Positions 1,419 through 20,880 of a DNA stretch of 21,926 nucleotides are shown one piece after another. The translations under genes and the position numbers were made by a program. Origin of the DNA: a virus (Duplodnaviria > Heunggongvirae > Uroviricota > Caudoviricetes); IMG/VR virus record IMGVR_UViG_2585427776_000012. One strand, given 5' to 3'. The notes below the pieces were generated by a model. The model had not been told where the DNA came from and made no database searches. It was given only the letters and a program-made list of their open reading frames with translations. Position 1 is the first letter of the stretch. Each line of letters starts with the position of its first letter.

Positions 1419-3911
1419 TTAAAAATCAGCCTGACTCGGGATCAGTTTTTGCCAGATAACTGAAACGTATTTTGCCTGGTAACGGGCGTCATCAAGTGCA
1501 TTATGGCGCTCACCTTCGAATGGAATAGCCGTTCTGGCATCGAAGTCTATGGCTTTCCCCAGCTCAACGATTGTGCGTACATCGCGATCGTTGTAGTAAC
1601 GCCATGGGCAGGGGATCCCCTGCCGTTCGTATGAACGGCGCAAAATCGTGTTGTCGAAGTTGGCTCCATTTCCCCAAACCTGAACAAAAAATTCACCGGA
1701 GTTTTCGTCGATAAATTCTCGCAATTGTAACAGTGCATCATCTAACGGGATTTCATCGGTCATAATGGCAGATTGCGCTTCGCGTGATTGCTTAAGCCAC
1801 CATTTAATGGTGTCCCGATCAATGACTCCGCCAGCAGTTTCCAGATCGATAGTCTTACTAAATTCCGGTCCCATATCTCCGGTTTGCGGATCGAAAAATA
1901 TTGCACCTATTGAGATAATCGGGGCATCAGGATTTTTTCCCATGGTTTTAAGGTCGATCATTAGATGGTCACACGTCCTGCTGGTGGATGTGATAAGGTG
2001 ATGACCGTTCACCGTAATTAAGGGATCTGCCGTCTCGCCAGTTTCACTATCGCTGGCGTGATCCTGAGCGCTGCCAGCATTCTCCTTGTGTGGATGTTCA
2101 GCGCCTTCCATTTCCTTTGGATCATTTTCCTGAACTTCAACCTGATTCTCTTCATCGAATGTTTCCTGGTATGTTGCATCACCCATCACCGCGCCACAAT
2201 CAGGGCAGTTGCCGCCGCCGGTCTGACCGCAGGCGGTGCAGACTTTTTCCACTTCCTGTTGCGCTACTGGTTCAGGCTGTTTCGTTTCTGGCTCGTTTTG
2301 TAACGCATTTGGACTGTTTTGTTCCGCTTTTTGGTAGTTCCGTTCCGCTTTTTGGTAGTTCCGTTCCGATTCATGCTGGTTCTGGTTCACAGAATCGCGG
2401 GTCTGGAGCCCCTTAACCCATTTCGGATCATTCGGGTCGCTAATCCCTGCAACAAATTCTCCGCGAGAGGCAGCAAGCAACTTATCGGCGTCAGGCTGGC
2501 TGATATTGGCTGCCTGCATAATTTTGTTTACTTCGTCAGCGGTAACTTTTACCGGCTCTGGTTGTGCGGTCGTGTCAGATGCACCAGTATTTTGTTGTGA
2601 ACCTGAGTACGTGCCGTTTTTACGTGCGAAGTATTCCTCTTTTGTGATTTCCGTAGCTCCCAAGGCTAGTGCTTTTTCCAGACCAGAAAGTTTGTTTGCG
2701 CGACCGTATTTTTCGCCATCCTTGTCGGTGAAGAGGAAGTAGAACGGCCCCTCACGCTCTACAGATGGTTCGACTTCCACTTTGCATTCGGTTTTTTCGT
2801 TGCCCGGAATTGCCGTTTCCACTGCATCAGTTTCTGGTACTGGCGACGAGAGAGTATCAGTTGCGCTCTGATTTCTTCCTTCATCTTCAAACACGCCCTT
2901 TGTAGTCAGGTATTCAGTAATGTATTTGTTCAGTGCCACAGGGTCTTTGTGAATGTCGATCGGACGTTCACGGACAAGGCCAAAAATAGTCTGGCGGTCG
3001 TAGCGAAGGGCATCAGGCTGTTTGCGCATTGATGCCGAGATACGCTTCCAGTCTTCGCGGTCGTTGTCGATAACTTCTTTTTTTGCCCAGCGATGGATGC
3101 TGCCGTCAATGTTTCCGGCATCCACATCACCAGGCCAGAGAGCGTAGGCCAGTTCGTCATCCAGTGTTTTCCATGTCTGCTTGTATTCGCGATGAATGGC
3201 AGCAATGACCGGGCTGATTTTTCCTGTTGAATTTTCAGTGTACTGTTGATTGGCTCTGGCGCGGGCGAGATCAACAACAGACGTGTATTTTCCGGTTTCC
3301 TTGCGTTCACCTTCGCGACGTTTTTTCCAGATGCGCATCTCTGCCTGAATTTCGGGCCATTTAGCACCAGGAATACATTTATGCTTAACCCACCCAATGG
3401 CGTGCAACTTAAGCTCCGGATACATGGCGTTAACTTCTGGCATTTTCATCAACGCTTCAACGATATGTCCGTCGAATGTTGCCATGTCTTCCTGCAACAA
3501 TTCCTGTGCGCTAATAACCATATCAACGGTGATGTTTTCACATGTGTCGAACTTAACCATGACAGCGTTCTGTACTTCAGGGGCCAGCTTGTCAAAAGTG
3601 ACGTTCATCGGATCGGATTCAGTCTCAACCGGGACAAAAGAAGCAGACTCCTCATCCCAGCGGTTTTCCTGCATATATTCAGCATCCCATGAATCGAGGG
3701 CAGGGCGGGGTATGCCAGGTTTATCCTCGCAGACAATAAATTTATAAGCGCAGTCCTGAGCAGCCGGATAATGTTCCAGGAATTGCCAGTGAAATTTTGC
3801 TCGAGCACGGCGTTCGTCGCCAGCTTCAATGGCTGTAGCTACAGCCACAGCGCTATCTTCTTTTATGGCCTGTTCGTCAGGAATAGCAGCGCAAATAAAG
3901 ACTTTACTCAT
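1419..3911 (-). CDS. Putative phage exonuclease, 830 aa, with C-terminal DEDD-type 3'-5' exonuclease-like domain and internal Cys4 zinc-ribbon
   Basis: Long ORF with RBS GAGGT 8 nt before the ATG. C-terminal motifs NGANFDNTIL and HNALDDARYQAKY resemble DnaQ/RNase T-like exonuclease motifs. CTACGQTGGGNCPDCG is zinc-ribbon-like. Sits in the recE/exo position of the early-left operon. Confidence 0.7.
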   Translation of the reverse strand: MSKVFICAAIPDEQAIKEDSAVAVATAIEAGDERRARAKFHWQFLEHYPAAQDCAYKFIVCEDKPGIPRPALDSWDAEYMQENRWDEESASFVPVETESDPMNVTFDKLAPEVQNAVMVKFDTCENITVDMVISAQELLQEDMATFDGHIVEALMKMPEVNAMYPELKLHAIGWVKHKCIPGAKWPEIQAEMRIWKKRREGERKETGKYTSVVDLARARANQQYTENSTGKISPVIAAIHREYKQTWKTLDDELAYALWPGDVDAGNIDGSIHRWAKKEVIDNDREDWKRISASMRKQPDALRYDRQTIFGLVRERPIDIHKDPVALNKYITEYLTTKGVFEDEGRNQSATDTLSSPVPETDAVETAIPGNEKTECKVEVEPSVEREGPFYFLFTDKDGEKYGRANKLSGLEKALALGATEITKEEYFARKNGTYSGSQQNTGASDTTAQPEPVKVTADEVNKIMQAANISQPDADKLLAASRGEFVAGISDPNDPKWVKGLQTRDSVNQNQHESERNYQKAERNYQKAEQNSPNALQNEPETKQPEPVAQQEVEKVCTACGQTGGGNCPDCGAVMGDATYQETFDEENQVEVQENDPKEMEGAEHPHKENAGSAQDHASDSETGETADPLITVNGHHLITSTSRTCDHLMIDLKTMGKNPDAPIISIGAIFFDPQTGDMGPEFSKTIDLETAGGVIDRDTIKWWLKQSREAQSAIMTDEIPLDDALLQLREFIDENSGEFFVQVWGNGANFDNTILRRSYERQGIPCPWRYYNDRDVRTIVELGKAIDFDARTAIPFEGERHNALDDARYQAKYVSVIWQKLIPSQADF
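2321..2368. repeat. Tandem 21-bp direct repeat (2.3 copies) inside the exonuclease gene
   Basis: GTTCCGCTTTTTGGTAGTTCC repeated twice plus a partial third unit; encodes the duplicated peptide NYQKAER in the low-complexity linker. Confidence 0.8.
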
Positions 3912-4003: not shown

Positions 4004-4195
4004 TTAAAGACCTGCCGGGATTTCGTTATTATCCTGGTGAATAACTTTATCGACCGGGTAACAGTTACCGGGAATTTTCTGTTCGGTTGCTGCAGTCACA
4101 CACTCCTGCATTGTCCTGTGAACACTGACTGCAATATCAACTGGCTCTCCGGAAACAAGAAAAACTGTCAGAACAAGTGCAAATGCTGTATTCAT
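4004..4195 (-). CDS. Small secreted or membrane-anchored protein (63 aa, N-terminal signal-peptide-like segment, two Cys)
   Basis: ATG overlaps the stop of the upstream small gene (ATGA overlap), AAGGA 9 nt upstream. Hydrophobic N-terminus MNTAFALVLTVFLVSG. The ORF track extends it to 4249, but the internal start is better supported. Confidence 0.5.
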   Translation of the reverse strand: MNTAFALVLTVFLVSGEPVDIAVSVHRTMQECVTAATEQKIPGNCYPVDKVIHQDNNEIPAGL

Positions 4196-4380
4196 TGCCA
4201 GCATCCTTTTTGTATCGGACGTAAACGGGCCAGCATTGAAAGAATGCATATTTTATTTAATAGCTCCCGTTCGTGTTTTCTCTTGTTAATGGCATCTTCA
4301 GTAAATACAGGGTTACTGATAGTGACACCAATTTCAAAACAACCTTCAGACGTATTAACGTTTGGTAATAACGTTTCCAT
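4192..4380 (-). CDS. Small hypothetical protein (62 aa), translationally coupled to the downstream small gene
   Basis: GAGGA RBS 7 nt before the ATG at 4380; stop overlaps the next start. ORF track gives a longer 97-aa frame; the start is chosen on RBS. Confidence 0.45.
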   Translation of the reverse strand: METLLPNVNTSEGCFEIGVTISNPVFTEDAINKRKHERELLNKICILSMLARLRPIQKGCWQ

Positions 4381-4946
4381 TATCGCGTCCTCAACAATGA
4401 ATTTTGTGATGCGGTGCCTGGTGCCTCCAGGTGACGTTAACCAGTTAACAATTAACGCCGGATACAGAGAATCCACCCATAACACTGTTTTTGGTTTTAA
4501 CTGTTCCGCGTGCGCTCAGCCGCATTCACCACATCACAAAATTCACTTTAAAAAGGGCGGCAGAGCAGTCACGGAGTAAAACTGATACCGCCAAACGTCA
4601 CCAGAAAATTGATAACAGAGGGCGTTGCAGCGGGGTTGTCACTTAAGCGTATGGTCAACCTGACAACCCGGTGTCCTCAACGGGGGAAGGAATAACCCCG
4701 CCATACTTACCGCCGCGCCATTTCGCGGATTGCCACAACCGGAAGCGCACGGTCGACGAAAATTTAACGACAGGCTATCTATGAACCAGCTACCTCGCCG
4801 TGCGCTTTCGCGTTATGGTCTGACTTTTCAGGGAAATATCCTTTCAGTAAACTGTCAGTGCCGGATTCTTATCCGTGTCCGGCGCACGACCACACGCTGT
4901 CACGAGAGGTCTCCATTCTCAACCAGTAACCTCAATGGAGGATAAA

Positions 4947-5141
4947 ATGTCAGAGCAGGAGTTAAAACTTGGTGCATGTTATTGTGTTCTCAAGGAGCTG
5001 GTACACATGCTTCCATCTACTCAGTATCAACAGTTAGTTGGCAATTTAAATCAGCGAATCGAAGCTATGTTAAAATCTGATGGTTTTAATAACGTAGAAA
5101 CGCTGATGCTAAAAAGATATCTTGATGGATTAATCAGATAA
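4947..5141 (+). CDS. Small hypothetical protein (64 aa), opposite in orientation to the early-left operon
   Basis: Strong RBS GGAGG 5 nt before the ATG at 4947. 3' end overlaps, convergently, the 3' end of the 116-aa minus-strand gene. No recognisable motif. Confidence 0.5.
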   Translation: MSEQELKLGACYCVLKELVHMLPSTQYQQLVGNLNQRIEAMLKSDGFNNVETLMLKRYLDGLIR

Positions 5142-5480
5142 CATTTTTTTACGGCGTTCATATTCGTTAATATTTATGAAGCCTGTTGCCAGAAGCAGTT
5201 CGTTAATTTCATGGTTGTTTGGCTGTTTCTGGCTCTTTGAACTGGGATCTTCCACTTCTTTTTCTGCAAATTGTTTTGCTGTATCCTCTGTGCCATGGAT
5301 ATTTAAAGCTGTATCTGAAAACAGCCCAGTAAACGCATCGCGCACATTACGAGCCATATTATCAGTGTCTTTTTTTGTTACCGATTCCAATTCAAGTTCG
5401 TTCAGACGATGACGAAGTGTGTGTGCTGCAATCTCCTGGATTGAAGGAGGTAAATCTTTAAATTCCATCGTCAACCTCAT
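5130..5480 (-). CDS. Hypothetical early-left protein (112-116 aa)
   Basis: ORF in the early-left operon. Likely start is the ATG at 5468 (MEFKDLPP...) with GAGG upstream; the upstream gene's stop overlaps the alternative ATG at 5480. Confidence 0.5.
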   Translation of the reverse strand: MRLTMEFKDLPPSIQEIAAHTLRHRLNELELESVTKKDTDNMARNVRDAFTGLFSDTALNIHGTEDTAKQFAEKEVEDPSSKSQKQPNNHEINELLLATGFININEYERRKKMLSD

Positions 5481-5713
5481 CAGTCAGTGTTTCTGGTTAA
5501 CCAGCGACGCGCGCCAGCTTCAGTTTTAAACGTTTTGCTTCTGGTATATGTCATCGCGGTAAACGTGCCGTCCTGGTTGGGAAACACGCCGCATACCAGA
5601 GATTCGTTGTTGCCAAGCTCGATAGTATCCATGCTGACCTCATTTCCCCTTAACGCCGGGGTAGCGGAACAAAAACCTGCTGCATAGTTATTAAAGTTGA
5701 ACCCTGCCGTCAT
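5480..5713 (-). CDS. Hypothetical early-left protein (77 aa, or 50 aa from the internal start at 5632)
   Basis: First ORF downstream of the presumed pL region. The internal ATG at 5632 has the better RBS (GAGGT). Function unknown. Confidence 0.45.
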   Translation of the reverse strand: MTAGFNFNNYAAGFCSATPALRGNEVSMDTIELGNNESLVCGVFPNQDGTFTAMTYTRSKTFKTEAGARRWLTRNTD

Positions 5714-5924
5714 GTTCTTACGCCTCGGGCTGGCTACTTAACCCCTGACCACTGCCTGGTAACTCGAAGTATTGCCCTGCATTCTGTGGGGTGGGGAGAG
5801 GGAATGAATTAAGTTTAGTAAAATGAACTTTTCAGGTCAATGTTTTTTTATCAAAACATTTTAAGCAGGCAGCTGTTAAGCCATCACCACGATGGCATAC
5901 AGTTAATCAAATAGATGAGGTCGG

Positions 5925-6563
5925 TTAAATATTTTGTTGAATTTTAAAGCATACGCCCAATATGCAAGATAGATCATCCAGCATAATTGAAGGGTAGCGA
6001 GGATTCGTGGGGACTAAAAGAATATCCGGCCCTTCTATCTCCAGTTTACGAATGACAGGTGTTGTGGTCCCTTTGGGTAAGGCAAGGACAATATTTCCTG
6101 GTTGTACGGTTCGATCGGGATCAACAAAAACTGTTGAACCATTTGGGATGGAAACTCCCCCACCAGATGTTGACATACTGTCACTCTCTAGAACAACTGC
6201 AAAGGTATTGGCCGGGATTTCTCCGACAAGCTGCACACAAGAGGTTATTGAGGAATTTTTCATATAATCACTCCAGCTTGCTGCCTGCTGAAGTGATAGT
6301 AGCGGAACCGTTTTTATCGGCGGTAAAGATAGATCAAGCGAATCACCTGTATTTAACTCTCCTCCATTAAGAAGCCAATTTTCGTTTACTTTCAATATTT
6401 TTGCCAGTGAACTTATGTAACGCGAGGACGGCGCTCCTCCACCGTTCATCCATTGACTTACGGAGCCTTTTGATGCGCCAGTGGCATTGACAAGGTCTTT
6501 GCCTTTCAGGTTTAGCGCATGCATACGTTGGGTTATGCGTTCAGATATTGTTTGCTTGTTCAT
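5925..6563 (-). CDS. cI-like prophage repressor (N-terminal HTH, C-terminal LexA/S24 peptidase-like domain)
   Basis: 212-aa ORF divergent from the cro-like gene. N-terminal HTH-like segment (GASKGSVSQWMNG...). C-terminal region is S24-like (SMSTSGG ... IRK). Confidence 0.8.
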   Translation of the reverse strand: MNKQTISERITQRMHALNLKGKDLVNATGASKGSVSQWMNGGGAPSSRYISSLAKILKVNENWLLNGGELNTGDSLDLSLPPIKTVPLLSLQQAASWSDYMKNSSITSCVQLVGEIPANTFAVVLESDSMSTSGGGVSIPNGSTVFVDPDRTVQPGNIVLALPKGTTTPVIRKLEIEGPDILLVPTNPRYPSIMLDDLSCILGVCFKIQQNI

Positions 6564-6655
6564 GTTTTGATTTTAAAACACAGATGGTTTTGTTTCTTGA
6601 CTTTCTTTGGTTTTGATTATTAAACTTTTGGCGTTCAGTTTTATGGAGCGACTCA
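6564..6655. promoter_or_regulatory. Divergent immunity-region promoter/operator interval (pRM/pR analogue)
   Basis: 92-bp AT-rich spacer between the divergent repressor and cro-like genes, with repeated TTTTGATT-type motifs and a TTTTAAAA palindrome. Operators not individually resolved. Confidence 0.5.
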
Positions 6656-6897
6656 TGAAAAAATCAGAAGTATTAGGCTATTTTGGCGGAGTTGTTAAAA
6701 CAGCCGCAGCTCTAGGAACGTCAAAAACCACAGTCAGCATGTGGGGGGAAGAGGTTCCGTGGAAATGGGCGTTGCTAATTCAGGCAGTCACTGCCGGGGC
6801 GCTCAAATATGAGTTACACATACCGACGGTTGTCATTCCCGGTTCTGATCATAATCCGCCTTCTAACCAAGGGGGGATTCATGAAAATCAAGCATGA
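6656..6897 (+). CDS. Cro-like HTH regulator (YdaS-family-like)
   Basis: 80-aa ORF with GGAG RBS 6 nt before the ATG at 6656. HTH-like segment TAAALGTSKTTVSMW. First gene of the rightward operon, divergent from the repressor. Confidence 0.7.
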
Positions 6898-11488: not shown

Positions 11489-11569
11489 TTTTATATTGGC
11501 GAGGTGACGGGAGTTAAGTAGAATTGCTGCGGGTGCTTGAGGCTATCTGCCTCAGGCATGAACACCAAA

Positions 11570-11650
11570 GGCAGATAGAGAAAAGCCCCAGTTAATATTA
11601 CGCGTCCTGCAAGACGCTTAACATTAATCTGAGGCTCAATCTATGAACGG
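11570..11650 (-). ncRNA. sok: Predicted Sok-like antisense RNA (position inferred, boundaries approximate)
   Basis: In hok/sok loci the antisense RNA is transcribed opposite to the hok leader across the mok translation start. Placed by analogy; promoter not confidently identified. Confidence 0.3.
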
Positions 11651-11699
11651 CAAATCTAGGTTAGCCTCTTACGTGCCGAAAGGCAAGGAGAAGCAGGCT

Positions 11700-11855
11700 A
11701 TGAAGCAGCAAAAGGCGATGTTAATCGCCCTGATCGTCATCTGTTTAACCGTCATAGTGACGGCACTGGTAACGAGGAAAGACCTCTGCGAGGTACGAAT
11801 CCGAACCGGCCAGACGGAGGTCGCTGTCTTCACAGTTTACGAACCTGAGGAGTAA
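11700..11855 (+). CDS. hok: Hok-family type I toxin (in-frame upstream extension from 11643 = mok-like leader ORF)
   Basis: Product MKQQKAMLIALIVICLTVIVTALVTRKDLCEVRIRTGQTEVAVFTVYEPEE matches the Hok/Gef family as recalled. Upstream leader GGGTGCTTGAGGCTATCTGCCTCAGG resembles the conserved hok mRNA 5' end. Intrinsic terminator downstream. Confidence 0.85.
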   Translation: MKQQKAMLIALIVICLTVIVTALVTRKDLCEVRIRTGQTEVAVFTVYEPEE

Positions 11856-16221: not shown

Positions 16222-16297
16222 GGCCCTTTAGCTCAGTGGTGAGAGCGAGCGACTCATAATCGCCAGGTCGCTGGTTCAAATCCAGCAAGGGCCACCA
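16222..16297 (+). tRNA. tRNA-Ile2 (anticodon CAT, lysidine type; a Met reading is not excluded by sequence alone)
   Basis: Cloverleaf by eye: acceptor GGCCCTT/AAGGGCC, D-arm GCTC...GAGC, anticodon loop CTCATAA, T-loop TTCAAAT, encoded CCA. Closely resembles E. coli ileX as recalled. Confidence 0.8.
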
Positions 16298-16304
16298 TCA
16301 CATA

Positions 16305-16381
16305 CCGCCATTAGCTCATCAGGAAAGAGCGCCAGCCTTCGAAGCTGGTTGCGCGGAGTTCGGGTCCCCGAAGGCGGTCCA
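16305..16381 (+). tRNA. tRNA-Arg (anticodon read as TCG; one mismatch each in acceptor and T stems)
   Basis: Anticodon stem CCAGC/GCTGG with loop CTTCGAA, D-arm GCTC/GAGC, encoded CCA. Anticodon read by eye and should be confirmed with a tRNA scanner. Confidence 0.6.
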
Positions 16382-16394
16382 TTATCTGTATCCT

Positions 16395-16471
16395 GCGTTG
16401 TTAGCTCAGCCGGACAGAGCAATTGCCTTCTAAGCAATCGGTCACTGGTTCGAATCCAGTACAACGCGCCA
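16395..16471 (+). tRNA. tRNA-Arg (anticodon TCT, reads the rare AGA codon)
   Basis: Acceptor GCGTTGT/ACAACGC, anticodon stem ATTGC/GCAAT with loop CTTCTAA, T-loop TTCGAAT, discriminator G, encoded CCA. Confidence 0.8.
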
Positions 16472-16513: not shown

Positions 16514-16732
16514 TGTCTCACAATTCAGGCGGTTGACTGTTGTCTGGTTTGCGGGGAGTTTGTTAAAAGAAACTGGCATGGTGAATCCCCCTGTGCGGAG
16601 GGGCAATCAGCGAGTAGGTATATGGGATAATCGCGGATTCAGGTGCTGGTACTGAATTCACCGGGAGGCACCCGGCACCATGCAATGGCACATAGCGCCA
16701 CTCTCCAGCCCCTCTCCGGAGGGGCTTTTCTG
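16514..16732 (+). repeat. Structured non-coding element, copy 1 (candidate prophage sRNA gene with intrinsic terminator)
   Basis: Shares with copy 2: CTCACAATTCAG, TTGAC box, CATGGTGAAT + CCCCCT..GCGGAGGGG hairpin, TGAA-TCACCGGGAGGCACCCGGCACCATG, and terminator AGCCCCTCTCCGGAGGGGCTTTT (16707-16729). Central segment differs. No credible ORF. Confidence 0.55.
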
Positions 16733-16920
16733 TGCCGGATACATCACAGTTTCTGGAACCTTAGGTACTACAGTATCAGTCAGGGTGCTATATTTTCAGA
16801 TGTGATGAAAGCCTGTCAGCAGGCAGGGCGTATCGGAAATGACCCAGTAGAGAAAACGTTGACTCAGATACCGGTGCTGAGTTACCGGGAAACCGGCATC
16901 ACATGACCGCTATCCTTCCA

Positions 16921-16982: not shown

Positions 16983-17217
16983 TGCTCACAATTCAGTAAG
17001 TTGACAGTTGCCTGTCAGACTGGGCATTTGTTAAAAAAATTTCGCATGGTGAATCCCCCTGAGCGGAGGGGCGACTGGTGACGGTATAATCTCTGATTAT
17101 CAAAACGAGAATGACGCGGGTTTAGTGGCACCGGGCTGAACTCACCGGGAGGCACCCGGCACCATGTGCATGATGATACAGATACGCGGCTTTAGCCCCT
17201 CTCCGGAGGGGCTTTCT
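16983..17217 (+). repeat. Structured non-coding element, copy 2 (paralog of 16514-16732)
   Basis: Same conserved blocks as copy 1, TATAAT at 17085-17090, terminator AGCCCCTCTCCGGAGGGGCTTT at 17193-17214. A further GCCCGCG...CGCGGGC hairpin follows at 17232-17257. Confidence 0.55.
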
Positions 17218-17446
17218 TATGGACAAAAAAAGCCCGCGCTGGGAGACGCGGGCGGCAAGGAATAAACAATAAAACGTGAAGTAATATTTCAGCTGGCGAA
17301 TAATACCCCATAGTAATCACTCTGCGCAACTGCGCGGTCTTTTTCGAATTGCGGGCTGTAGTCTCCCTTCTGCCATTGTCCTGTAACTTCCGGACTTCAG
17401 CCTGCTCCTTATCTGACTCACAACATTATCCCGCCCGGGAGGATTC

Positions 17447-19904: not shown

Positions 19905-20641
19905 TGCAGGATATTCACGAAGAAAGTCTGAACGAGTCGGTTAAGTCAGAGCAGTCACCGCGGGTGGTACTCTGGGAAATCGACCTGACGGTGCAGGGCG
20001 GTGAGCGGTATTTTTTCTGCAATGAGCTGAATGAAAAAGGGGAGCCGGTGACCTGGCAGGGGCGTGAATATCAGGCGTACCCGATTGAGGGGAGTGGCTT
20101 TGAGATGAACGGGAAGGGCAGCAGTGCCAGACCATCGCTGACGGTGTCCAATCTGTTTGGTCTGGTCACCGGGATGGCGGAAGACCTGCAGAGTCTGGTG
20201 GGGGCCACGGTGGTCCGCCGCCGGGTGTATGCCCGTTTTCTGGATGCGGTGAATTTCGTTGCGGGCAATCCGGAGGCGGACCCGGAGCAGGAGCTGAGTG
20301 ACCGCTGGGTGGTGGAGCAGATGTCGCAGCTGACAGCCATGACGGCCTCGTTTGTGCTGGCCACACCGACCGAGACGGACGGGGCGCTGTTTCCCGGTCG
20401 TATCATGCTGGCGAACACCTGTATGTGGACCTACCGCTCTGATGAGTGTGGTTACACGGGCGGGGCTGTGGCGGATGAGTTCGATAAACCCACCACGGAT
20501 ATCCGTAAGGACAGATGCAGCAAGTGCATGCGCGGGTGTGAACTGCGCAGGAATGTCGGCAATTACGTCCGTTACCGGAAAATGTTACCTGGTTATCGCC
20601 GGAAGGGGAGTTTCAGAAGTGGAACGGCACAGCCTGGGTGA
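19904..20641 (+). CDS. Minor tail protein L (C-terminal ~25 aa replaced by out-of-frame tfa-derived sequence)
   Basis: 245 aa; strong similarity to lambda gpL through ...[16 protein letters not shown], after which the sequence diverges (recombination junction about 20565-20578). Confidence 0.8.
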
Positions 20642-20880
20642 AGGATACGGAAGCAGAAAAACTGTTCCGGATCCGGGAGGCGGAAGAAACAAAAAACAAC
20701 CTGATGCAGGTAGCCAGTGAGCATATTGCGCCGCTTCAGGATGCTGCAGATCTGGAAATTGCAACGGAGGAAGAAACCTCATTGCTGGAAGCCTGGAAAA
20801 AGTATCGGGTGTTGCTGAACCGTGTTGATACATCAACTGCACCTGATATTGAGTGGCCTACGAACCCTGTCAGGGAGTAA
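20578..20880 (+). pseudogene. Tail fibre assembly protein (Tfa) 3' fragment fused out of frame to the end of L
   Basis: Frame-1 translation [94 protein letters not shown] is the typical Tfa C-terminal region. No N-terminus or own start; the K, I, J and stf genes are absent. Confidence 0.75.

Follow-up and report, generated by a model that had tools for sequence, protein, structure and literature searches.

The window (the whole stretch of 21,926 nucleotides that was analysed) derives from a prophage of the PPompW type, which has ompW as its integration site and is probably intact. A 901-bp segment, which adjoins ompW, is identical in Escherichia coli 55989, in the O104:H4 outbreak strains and in ATCC 25922. 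The part of the early-left region considered here, together with its flanking genes, contains the following features:

4192-4380, minus strand: dicB, encoding a 62-aa cell-division inhibitor (Pfam PF05358 DicB, E = 1.7e-37, full length)
4383-4554, minus strand: spacer between dicF and dicB, a highly structured RNA in which a 21-bp stem (4527-4547 / 4396-4416) encloses three hairpins
4550-4554, minus strand: U-run directly after DicF
4555-4607, minus strand: DicF sRNA (Rfam RF00039), 53 nt including its terminator stem-loop
4633-4669, minus strand: pre-DicF hairpin, the first inverted repeat (9-bp stem, 19-nt loop)
4734-4817, minus strand: long imperfect stem-loop, a putative RNase III site (13-nt arms at 4740-4752 and 4798-4810, 92% complementary)
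4825-4853, plus strand: putative weak sigma-70 promoter (TTTTCA-17 nt-TAAACT, 8/12, below the scan threshold)
4860-4883, plus strand: leader hairpin H1, GCCGGA-N12-TCCGGC, the second inverted repeat
4890-4909, plus strand: leader hairpin H2, degenerate here (two A-A mismatches)
4910-4946, plus strand: leader hairpin H3, which covers the Shine-Dalgarno sequence GGAGG at 4937-4941
4947-5141, plus strand: 64-aa ORF (WP_001295058.1; PHROG 4987, E = 3e-49)
5130-5480, minus strand: 116-aa early-left gene, convergent partner of the 64-aa ORF
5480-5713, minus strand: ydfA/ydaF-like DUF1391 gene, the first of the early-left operon (Pfam PF07151, E = 9e-28)
5812-5840, minus strand: PL-like promoter candidate for the early-left operon (TTGACC-17 nt-TAAACT, 9/12 in a consensus scan)
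5925-6563, minus strand: CI-type repressor with HTH and S24 self-cleaving peptidase domains (Pfam PF00717, E = 2e-13; PF01381)
about 6655-6897, divergent from the CI-type repressor gene: P22-Cro-like gene

The PL-like promoter candidate is flanked by the repressor and DUF1391 genes, and a DUF1482/ydfD gene is found downstream of dicB. A previous sequence-only reading had seen no credible minus-strand ORF between 4381 and 5129, and we likewise found there nothing beyond an ORF of 31 aa and an extension of dicB to an upstream GTG. The same reading described the stretch as non-coding, which holds for protein; however, it encodes the DicF sRNA, and about 500 of its 566 bases make up a dicBF segment.

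DicF was recognised on the minus strand at 4555-4606 by the full Rfam model RF00039 (model positions 1-52 of 52), with 76.7 bits against a gathering score of 48 (E = 1e-15). All 53 of its nucleotides, including the target-pairing regions, are identical to K-12 dicF (b1574). The similarity extends over window positions 4383-4888, where identity to the untranslated ydfC-dicF-dicB region of K-12 prophage Qin is 98-99%, with 273 of 281 positions identical in the pre-DicF leader and 171 of 172 in the dicF-dicB spacer. The order in K-12 Qin is ydfC, 340 nt of untranslated sequence, dicF (53 nt), a further 174 nt, and dicB; the spacing is the same here, dicB starting 174 nt downstream of DicF. The setting is that of a long untranslated region upstream of dicB, itself preceded by a DUF1391 gene, a PL-like promoter and a CI/Cro pair. 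Judged by this identity, positions 4381-4888 come from a dicBF-type operon, comprising DicF with its processing leader and the spacer that separates dicF from dicB, and represent already known biology. Because this segment is nearly identical to an experimentally studied sequence, the published dicBF mechanism can be applied to it with high confidence.

In K-12, RNase III yields a 190-nt DicF species that RNase E trims to 53 nt (PMC10448788). The 356-nt minus-strand leader of the window is predicted to fold more stably than its shuffled versions (z = -3.2), and the long stem at 4734-4817 was recovered by folding both the single sequence and the alignment. Among 64 unique pre-DicF sequences, variation falls mostly at the apex of this stem, and changes within the stem itself are mainly from G-C to G-U. 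Counting 190 nt back from the DicF 3' end leads to about position 4744, within the 3' arm of the stem; from this length only, we infer that the RNase III site defining the 5' end of the 190-nt precursor would lie near ~4744.

The dicF-dicB spacer is also predicted to be strongly folded (z = -5.2; 0 of 200 shuffles were as stable). RNase III also makes a 72-nt DicF species (PMC5069750), and the spacer is likely, from its sequence and predicted structure, to be the RNase III substrate that gives the 3' end of this species, its 21-bp stem acting as a putative second RNase III site on read-through transcripts. The same spacer resembles STnc100/PasD, scoring 38.7 bits (E = 1e-6) with the STnc100 model (RF02076), below the gathering score of 47. 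The two have in common a closing GGUG...CACC stem, a CC(N)GGAGGCACC(N)GG hairpin and compensatory changes, which were found at 13 of 41 consensus pairs when the spacer was compared with two true STnc100 copies. STnc100 has been described as prophage-borne. In contrast to STnc100, the spacer is an internal mRNA segment that ends at the dicB start region and not a free-standing sRNA gene. The two genuine STnc100 copies lie elsewhere in the window.

Upstream of DicF, the first inverted repeat had been reported as 8 bp long at about 4635-4672. Its presence and approximate position were correct, but the repeat is a perfect 9-bp one, GGGTTGTCA/TGACAACCC at 4633-4641/4661-4669. Two perfect 9-bp inverted repeats with loops of at most 45 nt were observed, where dinucleotide shuffles give an expectation of 0.14 (p ~0.04). 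The hairpin, including its loop, is essentially invariant among the 64 unique pre-DicF sequences, the exceptions being a few with G-U at the two basal pairs and one loop position that varies in less than 10%; it is also kept in a Salmonella locus (L006) where no DicF follows. Located between the putative RNase III site and the RNase E site, this repeat belongs to the minus-strand pre-DicF RNA and is not a control element of the plus-strand gene.

The homology with K-12 Qin ends at 4888/4889, where identity drops from 97% to 46%, and the region very probably consists of two units joined at this point, a dicBF-type untranslated segment and a plus-strand add-on cassette. The second inverted repeat, GCCGGA/TCCGGC, lies close to the join. 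It had been placed at about 4869-4894 and does exist, about 10 nt further left, at 4860-4865/4878-4883. Inverted repeats of 6 bp occur at chance frequency (9 observed versus 6.1 expected from dinucleotide shuffles, p = 0.21), and this one is therefore meaningful only through its conservation across genera. It forms the hairpin H1, whose pattern occurs once in the window with 0 matches expected, and whose sequence is conserved in Escherichia, Salmonella, Citrobacter, Edwardsiella, Trabulsiella and Pluralibacter. H1 itself sits just inside the last bases shared with Qin, the homology break coming five bases beyond it.

Two further hairpins separate H1 from the ATG. H2 maintains its pairing through at least five different stem sequences (CTCCAC/GTGGAG, CTCCAT/ATGGAG, CCCAAC/GTTGGG, CCACACG/CGTGTGG and GCCACA/TGTGGT), and at least five pairs are formed in 32 of 37 unique segments. 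These results come from folding of individual sequences, which replaced a column-wise pair count that was dropped as MAFFT had misregistered the stem types. The variant of H2 present in the window folds at -5.6 kcal/mol (z = 0). In the long form of H3, TCTCCATT (4910-4917) pairs with AATGGAGG (4934-4941). The minimum-energy fold for the window is not this long form but a shorter CCUC/GAGG alternative; among 14 representative leaders that precede an ORF, 7 do adopt the long form at minimum energy. The arms of H3, CTCCAT(T) and (A)ATGGAG(G), are conserved around a variable loop in all 25 unique ORF-bearing leaders.

The ~87 nt from H1 to the ATG are common to Salmonella, Citrobacter, Edwardsiella, Trabulsiella, Pluralibacter and many IMG/VR proviruses, and are conserved even amid unrelated flanking DNA. 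This leader precedes at least 11 unrelated families of small ORFs in six enterobacterial genera, which include helical proteins of 64-67 aa, a 69-aa family, peptides of 61-80 aa that contain CxxC and shorter, proline-rich ones of 30-36 aa, alongside further families in the range 57-104 aa. No Rfam family matched the leader when 4300-5250 was scanned with permissive settings. A genome-wide scan with the leader pattern gave mainly chance matches in GC-rich genomes, and the analysis made use only of the 11 loci that were enterobacterial. Near the leader, no plus-strand promoter site reached the scan threshold. Starting at ~4859-4861, transcription from the candidate at 4825-4853 would place H1 at the 5' end of the RNA, and a -10-like hexamer is present 5-9 nt before CCGGA in most of the non-homologous upstream contexts of other genera. 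A terminator scan of the plus strand downstream of 5141 found none.

The 64-aa ORF had been proposed as a plus-strand gene with a strong ribosome-binding site that converges on and overlaps the 116-aa gene, and we confirm each of these points: GGAGG (4937-4941) stands five bases before the ATG, and the two genes overlap by 12 bp (5130-5141). A homologue search, suggested as a check by the sequence-only reading, found the ORF to be conserved with a dN/dS of 0.22-0.31, differences falling mostly at third codon positions; in Escherichia, Salmonella and Citrobacter alike, only the plus-strand frame remains open. Homologues keep their full length down to 32% identity, and distant ones of 63-67 aa occur in the same orientation in other prophages. 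At the loci of Escherichia, Salmonella and Citrobacter the gene and the early-left genes face opposite ways, as they do in two prophage loci with distant homologues (L013 and L016); for Trabulsiella, represented by a 1.6-kb contig (L053), only the convergent minus-strand partner was checked. At every locus of this family the gene converges on a minus-strand gene, which it overlaps everywhere except in Citrobacter. From its pattern of conservation, the ORF looks like a real gene. It may also regulate its convergent 116-aa neighbour in antisense.

Of 5426 complete E. coli genomes, 207 carry the gene, which is absent from the same junction in Qin and in phage Tritos. A tblastn search of 50,697 phage records with the 64-aa protein gave no match. 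The family is tiny, with 7 clusters in a word-indexed search and 6 representatives among 1.84 billion in an exhaustive one. The AlphaFold2 model is a three-helix bundle (pLDDT 80), for which Foldseek found nothing significant in PDB and BFVD. Pfam, PHROGs, NCBIfam and PADLOC were run on the 64-aa, the 116-aa and a 77-aa protein, and assigned a functional family to neither of the first two. Literature searches on the protein accession and on antisense transcripts at ydfC/dicF found nothing in the papers that they covered, and yielded neither transcript nor proteome data on expression from the repressed prophage.

The convergent 116-aa protein is made of a conserved N-terminus (MRLTMEFKDLP...) and a cassette-specific C-terminus. 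Its N-terminal part is common to proteins of 105-216 aa with differing C-termini, and PHROGs 2151, 1363, 9419, 6937 and 33007 all match from residue 5; the matches end at about residues 55-60 for three of them and at 103-109 for 1363 and 2151. A C-terminal motif of the partner, LL(L/R)xxG.x.x.E(Y/F), co-occurs with the 64-aa family, including at distant loci, and each of the other cargo types is accompanied by its own fixed partner C-terminus.

The organisation of the locus can be compared with that of two K-12 prophages. Like the dicBF operon of Qin (ydfABC-dicF-dicB-ydfDE), to which its DicF, leader and spacer correspond as described above, it has dicB and ydfD/DUF1482 downstream, a DUF1391 gene in first position and a divergent repressor/Cro pair. 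It differs from Qin in that the 116-aa gene and the convergent 64-aa cassette replace ydfB and ydfC, and in that its repressor carries an S24 self-cleavage domain, which DicA reportedly does not. Here an SOS-cleavable repressor of the CI type governs the dicBF-type operon, so that DNA damage would induce DicF and DicB, unlike in Qin. The early-left region of Rac (racR-ydaG-ydaF-sieB-kilS-kilR-ydaE-racC-recE) also presents a repressor, a DUF1391 gene, an opposite-strand convergent overlapping gene, an sRNA, a division inhibitor and an exonuclease. The sRNA and inhibitor are kilS and kilR in Rac and dicF and dicB in the window. The slot and orientation of the 64-aa gene match those of sieB; however, the 162-aa product of Rac sieB bears no relation to the 64-aa protein, and no homology to the plus-strand leader is seen in the sequence upstream of sieB. 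The sequence-only reading had described sieB as reportedly opposite in orientation in Rac, which is correct because Rac carries an opposite-strand sieB converging on the DUF1391 gene.

Lambdoid morons are additional genes that have been inserted between conserved ones of the phage and that, in the classical case, bring a promoter and a terminator of their own. The cassette resembles them in being present or absent at a fixed junction, in having an orientation independent of the operon, and in the diversity of cargo found in one slot. Its earlier description as an independently regulated moron is sound as far as a separate add-on is concerned, since it is absent from Qin and Tritos, under purifying selection, opposite in orientation and located in the sieB slot. 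In contrast to classical morons, the scan gave only a sub-threshold promoter candidate, with a weak -10-like hexamer, and no terminator. To our knowledge, an SD-occluding structured leader shared by unrelated cargoes is not a described feature of morons. The combination of a shared leader with interchangeable cargo is, as far as we could find, undescribed, and would represent a variation on the moron theme.

These comparisons suggest how the two units may function. Upon relief of the CI-type repressor, leftward transcription would proceed from the PL-like promoter near 5812-5840 through the DUF1391 gene, the 116-aa gene and, in antisense, the 64-aa gene, and then into the pre-DicF leader. As in K-12, RNase III would cleave the 4734-4817 stem to give the 190-nt species, and RNase E trimming would produce the 53-nt DicF (4555-4607), with a 3' end fixed by the DicF terminator. 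Transcripts reading through past DicF would include the structured spacer, followed by the coding sequences of dicB, ydfD and the exonuclease. The targets repressed by DicF are the ftsZ mRNA and metabolic mRNAs; cell division is blocked by DicB. Both this processing and the action of DicF and DicB are established for the near-identical Qin operon, and by virtue of that identity would apply here.

The plus-strand add-on cassette would in turn span 4860-5141 and comprise the ~87-nt three-hairpin leader and the gene for the 64-aa helical protein. Most likely, it would be transcribed alone from the weak promoter candidate just upstream of H1, against the early-left operon, and occlusion of the Shine-Dalgarno sequence by H3 would temper its translation. 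In the lysogen the cassette could then be expressed, and once the prophage is induced, convergent transcription from PL would silence it. We tentatively propose, giving it somewhat less than an even chance, that the leader is a portable platform for the expression and regulation of at least 11 unrelated cargoes antisense to the dicBF-type operon, each with a matching C-terminal domain in the partner, so as to form a polymorphic two-gene slot acting in the lysogen, in which the 64-aa cargo is perhaps an IraP-like modulator of RpoS stability.

The main rival to this interpretation stems from the fact that H1 and H2 are kept in Qin-type loci, where the 3' end of ydfC replaces H3 and the ORF; Qin, Tritos and 91 of 139 loci have both hairpins without a downstream Shine-Dalgarno sequence or plus-strand ORF. 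H1 and H2 may thus also, or instead, act in the minus-strand mRNA. In this rival, the plus-strand ORF would be unexpressed or non-functional, and the hairpins would be elements of the minus-strand dicBF mRNA, such as 3' stabilisers of its upstream cistrons once RNase has cut, or recombination linkers joining mosaic modules. In its favour, a stabilising effect of RNase III processing on the upstream portion of the dicBF mRNA has been reported, and H1 lies close to the homology break. A folding-energy test on H2 did not discriminate between the strands, the minus-strand folds being slightly more stable on average. However, one-sided substitutions in H2, at no fewer than five positions (not all independent), give G-U on the plus strand only, where the minus strand would have A-C, and no dicF leader adjoins the plus-strand leader in Edwardsiella, Trabulsiella, Pluralibacter and Citrobacter. 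The idea of an incidental ORF is moreover opposed by the coding signal, that is, the single open frame, the dN/dS values and the full-length divergent homologues, and by the conservation of a strong Shine-Dalgarno sequence and its anti-SD arm before every cargo ORF. Taken as a whole, we regard this rival as improbable. Less credible still is that the entire 570-bp stretch is the control region of a SieB-like exclusion moron, with both repeats as its operators or terminators. The second repeat does belong to the plus-strand leader, and the slot and orientation are those of sieB in Rac, but DicF, its precursor and the dicB leader account for ~500 bp of the stretch, and the first repeat lies within pre-DicF and is kept in loci devoid of the plus-strand gene. 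The link with exclusion, also put forward by the sequence-only reading, found no backing beyond the sieB position: Pfam, PHROGs, NCBIfam and PADLOC reveal no homology to SieB, the PADLOC scan of the 64-aa protein returned no defence family, and a predicted soluble helical bundle of 64 aa contrasts with the ~162 aa of Rac SieB.

Other alternatives concern the function of the cargo. It is conceivable, if somewhat doubtful, that the 64-aa protein and the C-terminal domain of the 116-aa protein form a two-gene module, for example an effector and its antagonist, within one polymorphic cassette, which is compatible with the preferred reading of a known dicBF segment followed by an add-on cassette. 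The motif pairing holds in five lineages, and the N-termini of the partners at L013, L016 and L053 are unrelated; distinct cargo types retain their own fixed partner C-termini, and in Salmonella two such pairs stand in tandem. Nevertheless, the Citrobacter 64-aa gene is without the partner, the linkage could merely reflect recombination at conserved flanks, and neither protein contains a known domain according to Pfam, PHROGs and PADLOC. A more specific suggestion, and an unlikely one, is that RpoS is stabilised in the lysogen by the 64-aa protein acting as a truncated, RssB-binding anti-adaptor of the IraP type. IraP (PF10796), the RssB anti-adaptor, is also a small helical protein, whereas the 64-aa protein is prophage-borne. 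Three methods agree on one alignment register with the C-terminal two-thirds of IraP: Pfam PF10796 (E = 0.062) for the window protein, NCBIfam IraP (NF007598) for a Citrobacter homologue (P0006) that NCBI names IraP, and hhalign, with 41.5% probability (P = 2.7e-4) over 56 columns aligning residues 10-64 with IraP 28-83. All scores nonetheless fall under the curated cut-offs (14.4 versus 23.2 bits for PF10796, 26.8 versus 78 for NF007598), and the N-terminal third of IraP (~27 residues) is missing. Moreover, NCBIfam gives no match for the window protein, BLASTP against K-12 IraP gave none either, no IraP emerged from a profile search of 1.84 billion representatives, and fold searches were uninformative. 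The similarity is weak and below threshold, and we treat it as a lead only, without counting the 64-aa protein as a member of the IraP family. A type I toxin-antitoxin system of the hok/sok kind was also considered and rejected, as the 64-aa protein is charged and predicted to be a soluble three-helix bundle, not a small hydrophobic membrane toxin. The SD-occluding leader is the only feature of the locus reminiscent of hok/sok.

If the reading of the leader as a platform for interchangeable cargo is confirmed, the leader would mark a recognisable hot spot for small proteins expressed in lysogens, and offer a handle for finding and testing them. The main feature of the region is one more copy of the very common DicF/DicB locus, which needs no fresh explanation: of 5426 complete E. 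coli genomes, 4732 match a query running from dicB to the plus-strand gene (window 4300-5200), and the median copy number is two. Its practical value lies in the correction of annotations, the region being easily mistaken for empty DNA. In the identical segment of E. coli 55989, RefSeq labels dicB as such and annotates the 64-aa 'hypothetical protein', and leaves DicF out; in phage Tritos, DicF is annotated in the corresponding block.

The dicBF-type early-left operon of the window, which carries dicB together with a DicF and a dicF-dicB spacer identical or nearly so to those of the K-12 Qin prophage, comes with its own repressor and a large neighbouring protein:

5925-6563, minus: repressor of the operon, with an S24 self-cleavage domain
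1419-3911, minus: 830-aa protein matching PF16473 (Rv2179c-like 3'-5' exoribonuclease domain) at residues 649-820

The S24 self-cleavage domain distinguishes the window repressor from DicA of Qin, and DicF and DicB should therefore be SOS-inducible here. Homologues of the 830-aa protein are named exonuclease VIII in Tritos, a phage with the same DicF block, and 'exonuclease' in RefSeq; PF16473 was its sole domain match, and PF06630 (Exonuc_VIII) was not matched.

The position occupied by DicF holds other sequences elsewhere. In a Salmonella enterica locus (L006, ~4625-4700, minus), the pre-DicF leader is kept, including its 9-bp hairpin, and DicF is replaced by an unrelated segment of ~60 nt whose 3' end consists of GCGGG-N8-CCCGC and AAUUUUUUU. 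This segment matched no Rfam family, even at E<=1, and may represent a different sRNA on the same processing platform as DicF. In the Rac prophage of K-12 (L012, 1906-2003), the annotated sRNA kilS lies between sieB and kilR, the position equivalent to that of dicF.

The window has further RNA genes and matches, among them full-length copies of the prophage sRNA STnc100 and Rfam hits to sok and IS009:

4348-4557, minus: STnc100-like dicF-dicB spacer, a sub-threshold match (38.7 bits vs 47)
16222-16468, plus: three tRNA genes
16547-16737 and 17015-17224, plus: two full-length STnc100 copies, 3' of the tRNA genes
11531-11705, plus: sok antitoxin RNA (113 bits)
20639-20837, plus: IS009 (225 bits)

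The spacer element is enclosed by a perfect 21-bp closing stem, and shares with STnc100 a multi-hairpin architecture with compensatory changes.

The three-hairpin leader preceding the 64-aa ORF of the window was also found with other cargo, and the convergent genes facing it likewise vary:

L036 5248-5340, L081, L055 115-225 and L166 2110-2208: leader with proline-rich peptide
L011 2565-2864 (E. coli O121 RM8352): 99-aa ORF behind the conserved leader, absent from the RefSeq annotation
L010 2769-3419 (E. coli STEC409): convergent gene, intact 216-aa ORF starting MRLTMEFKDLP
L006 4874-5195 and 5565-5897 (Salmonella): tandem leader-plus-cargo cassettes of the 64-aa and 69-aa types

Genomes of Edwardsiella and Trabulsiella, together with the IMG/VR contig L166, carry the proline-rich peptides (30-36 aa, MRINQFGG..RPTPAPKPKK). 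The 99-aa ORF overlaps its convergent 133-aa gene by 131 nt. RefSeq labels the STEC409 convergent gene a pseudogene 'missing N-terminus', yet its 216-aa ORF is full. In the Salmonella tandem, each cassette faces a separate convergent MRLTMEFK-type gene, and an upstream piece of ~125 nt is present twice.
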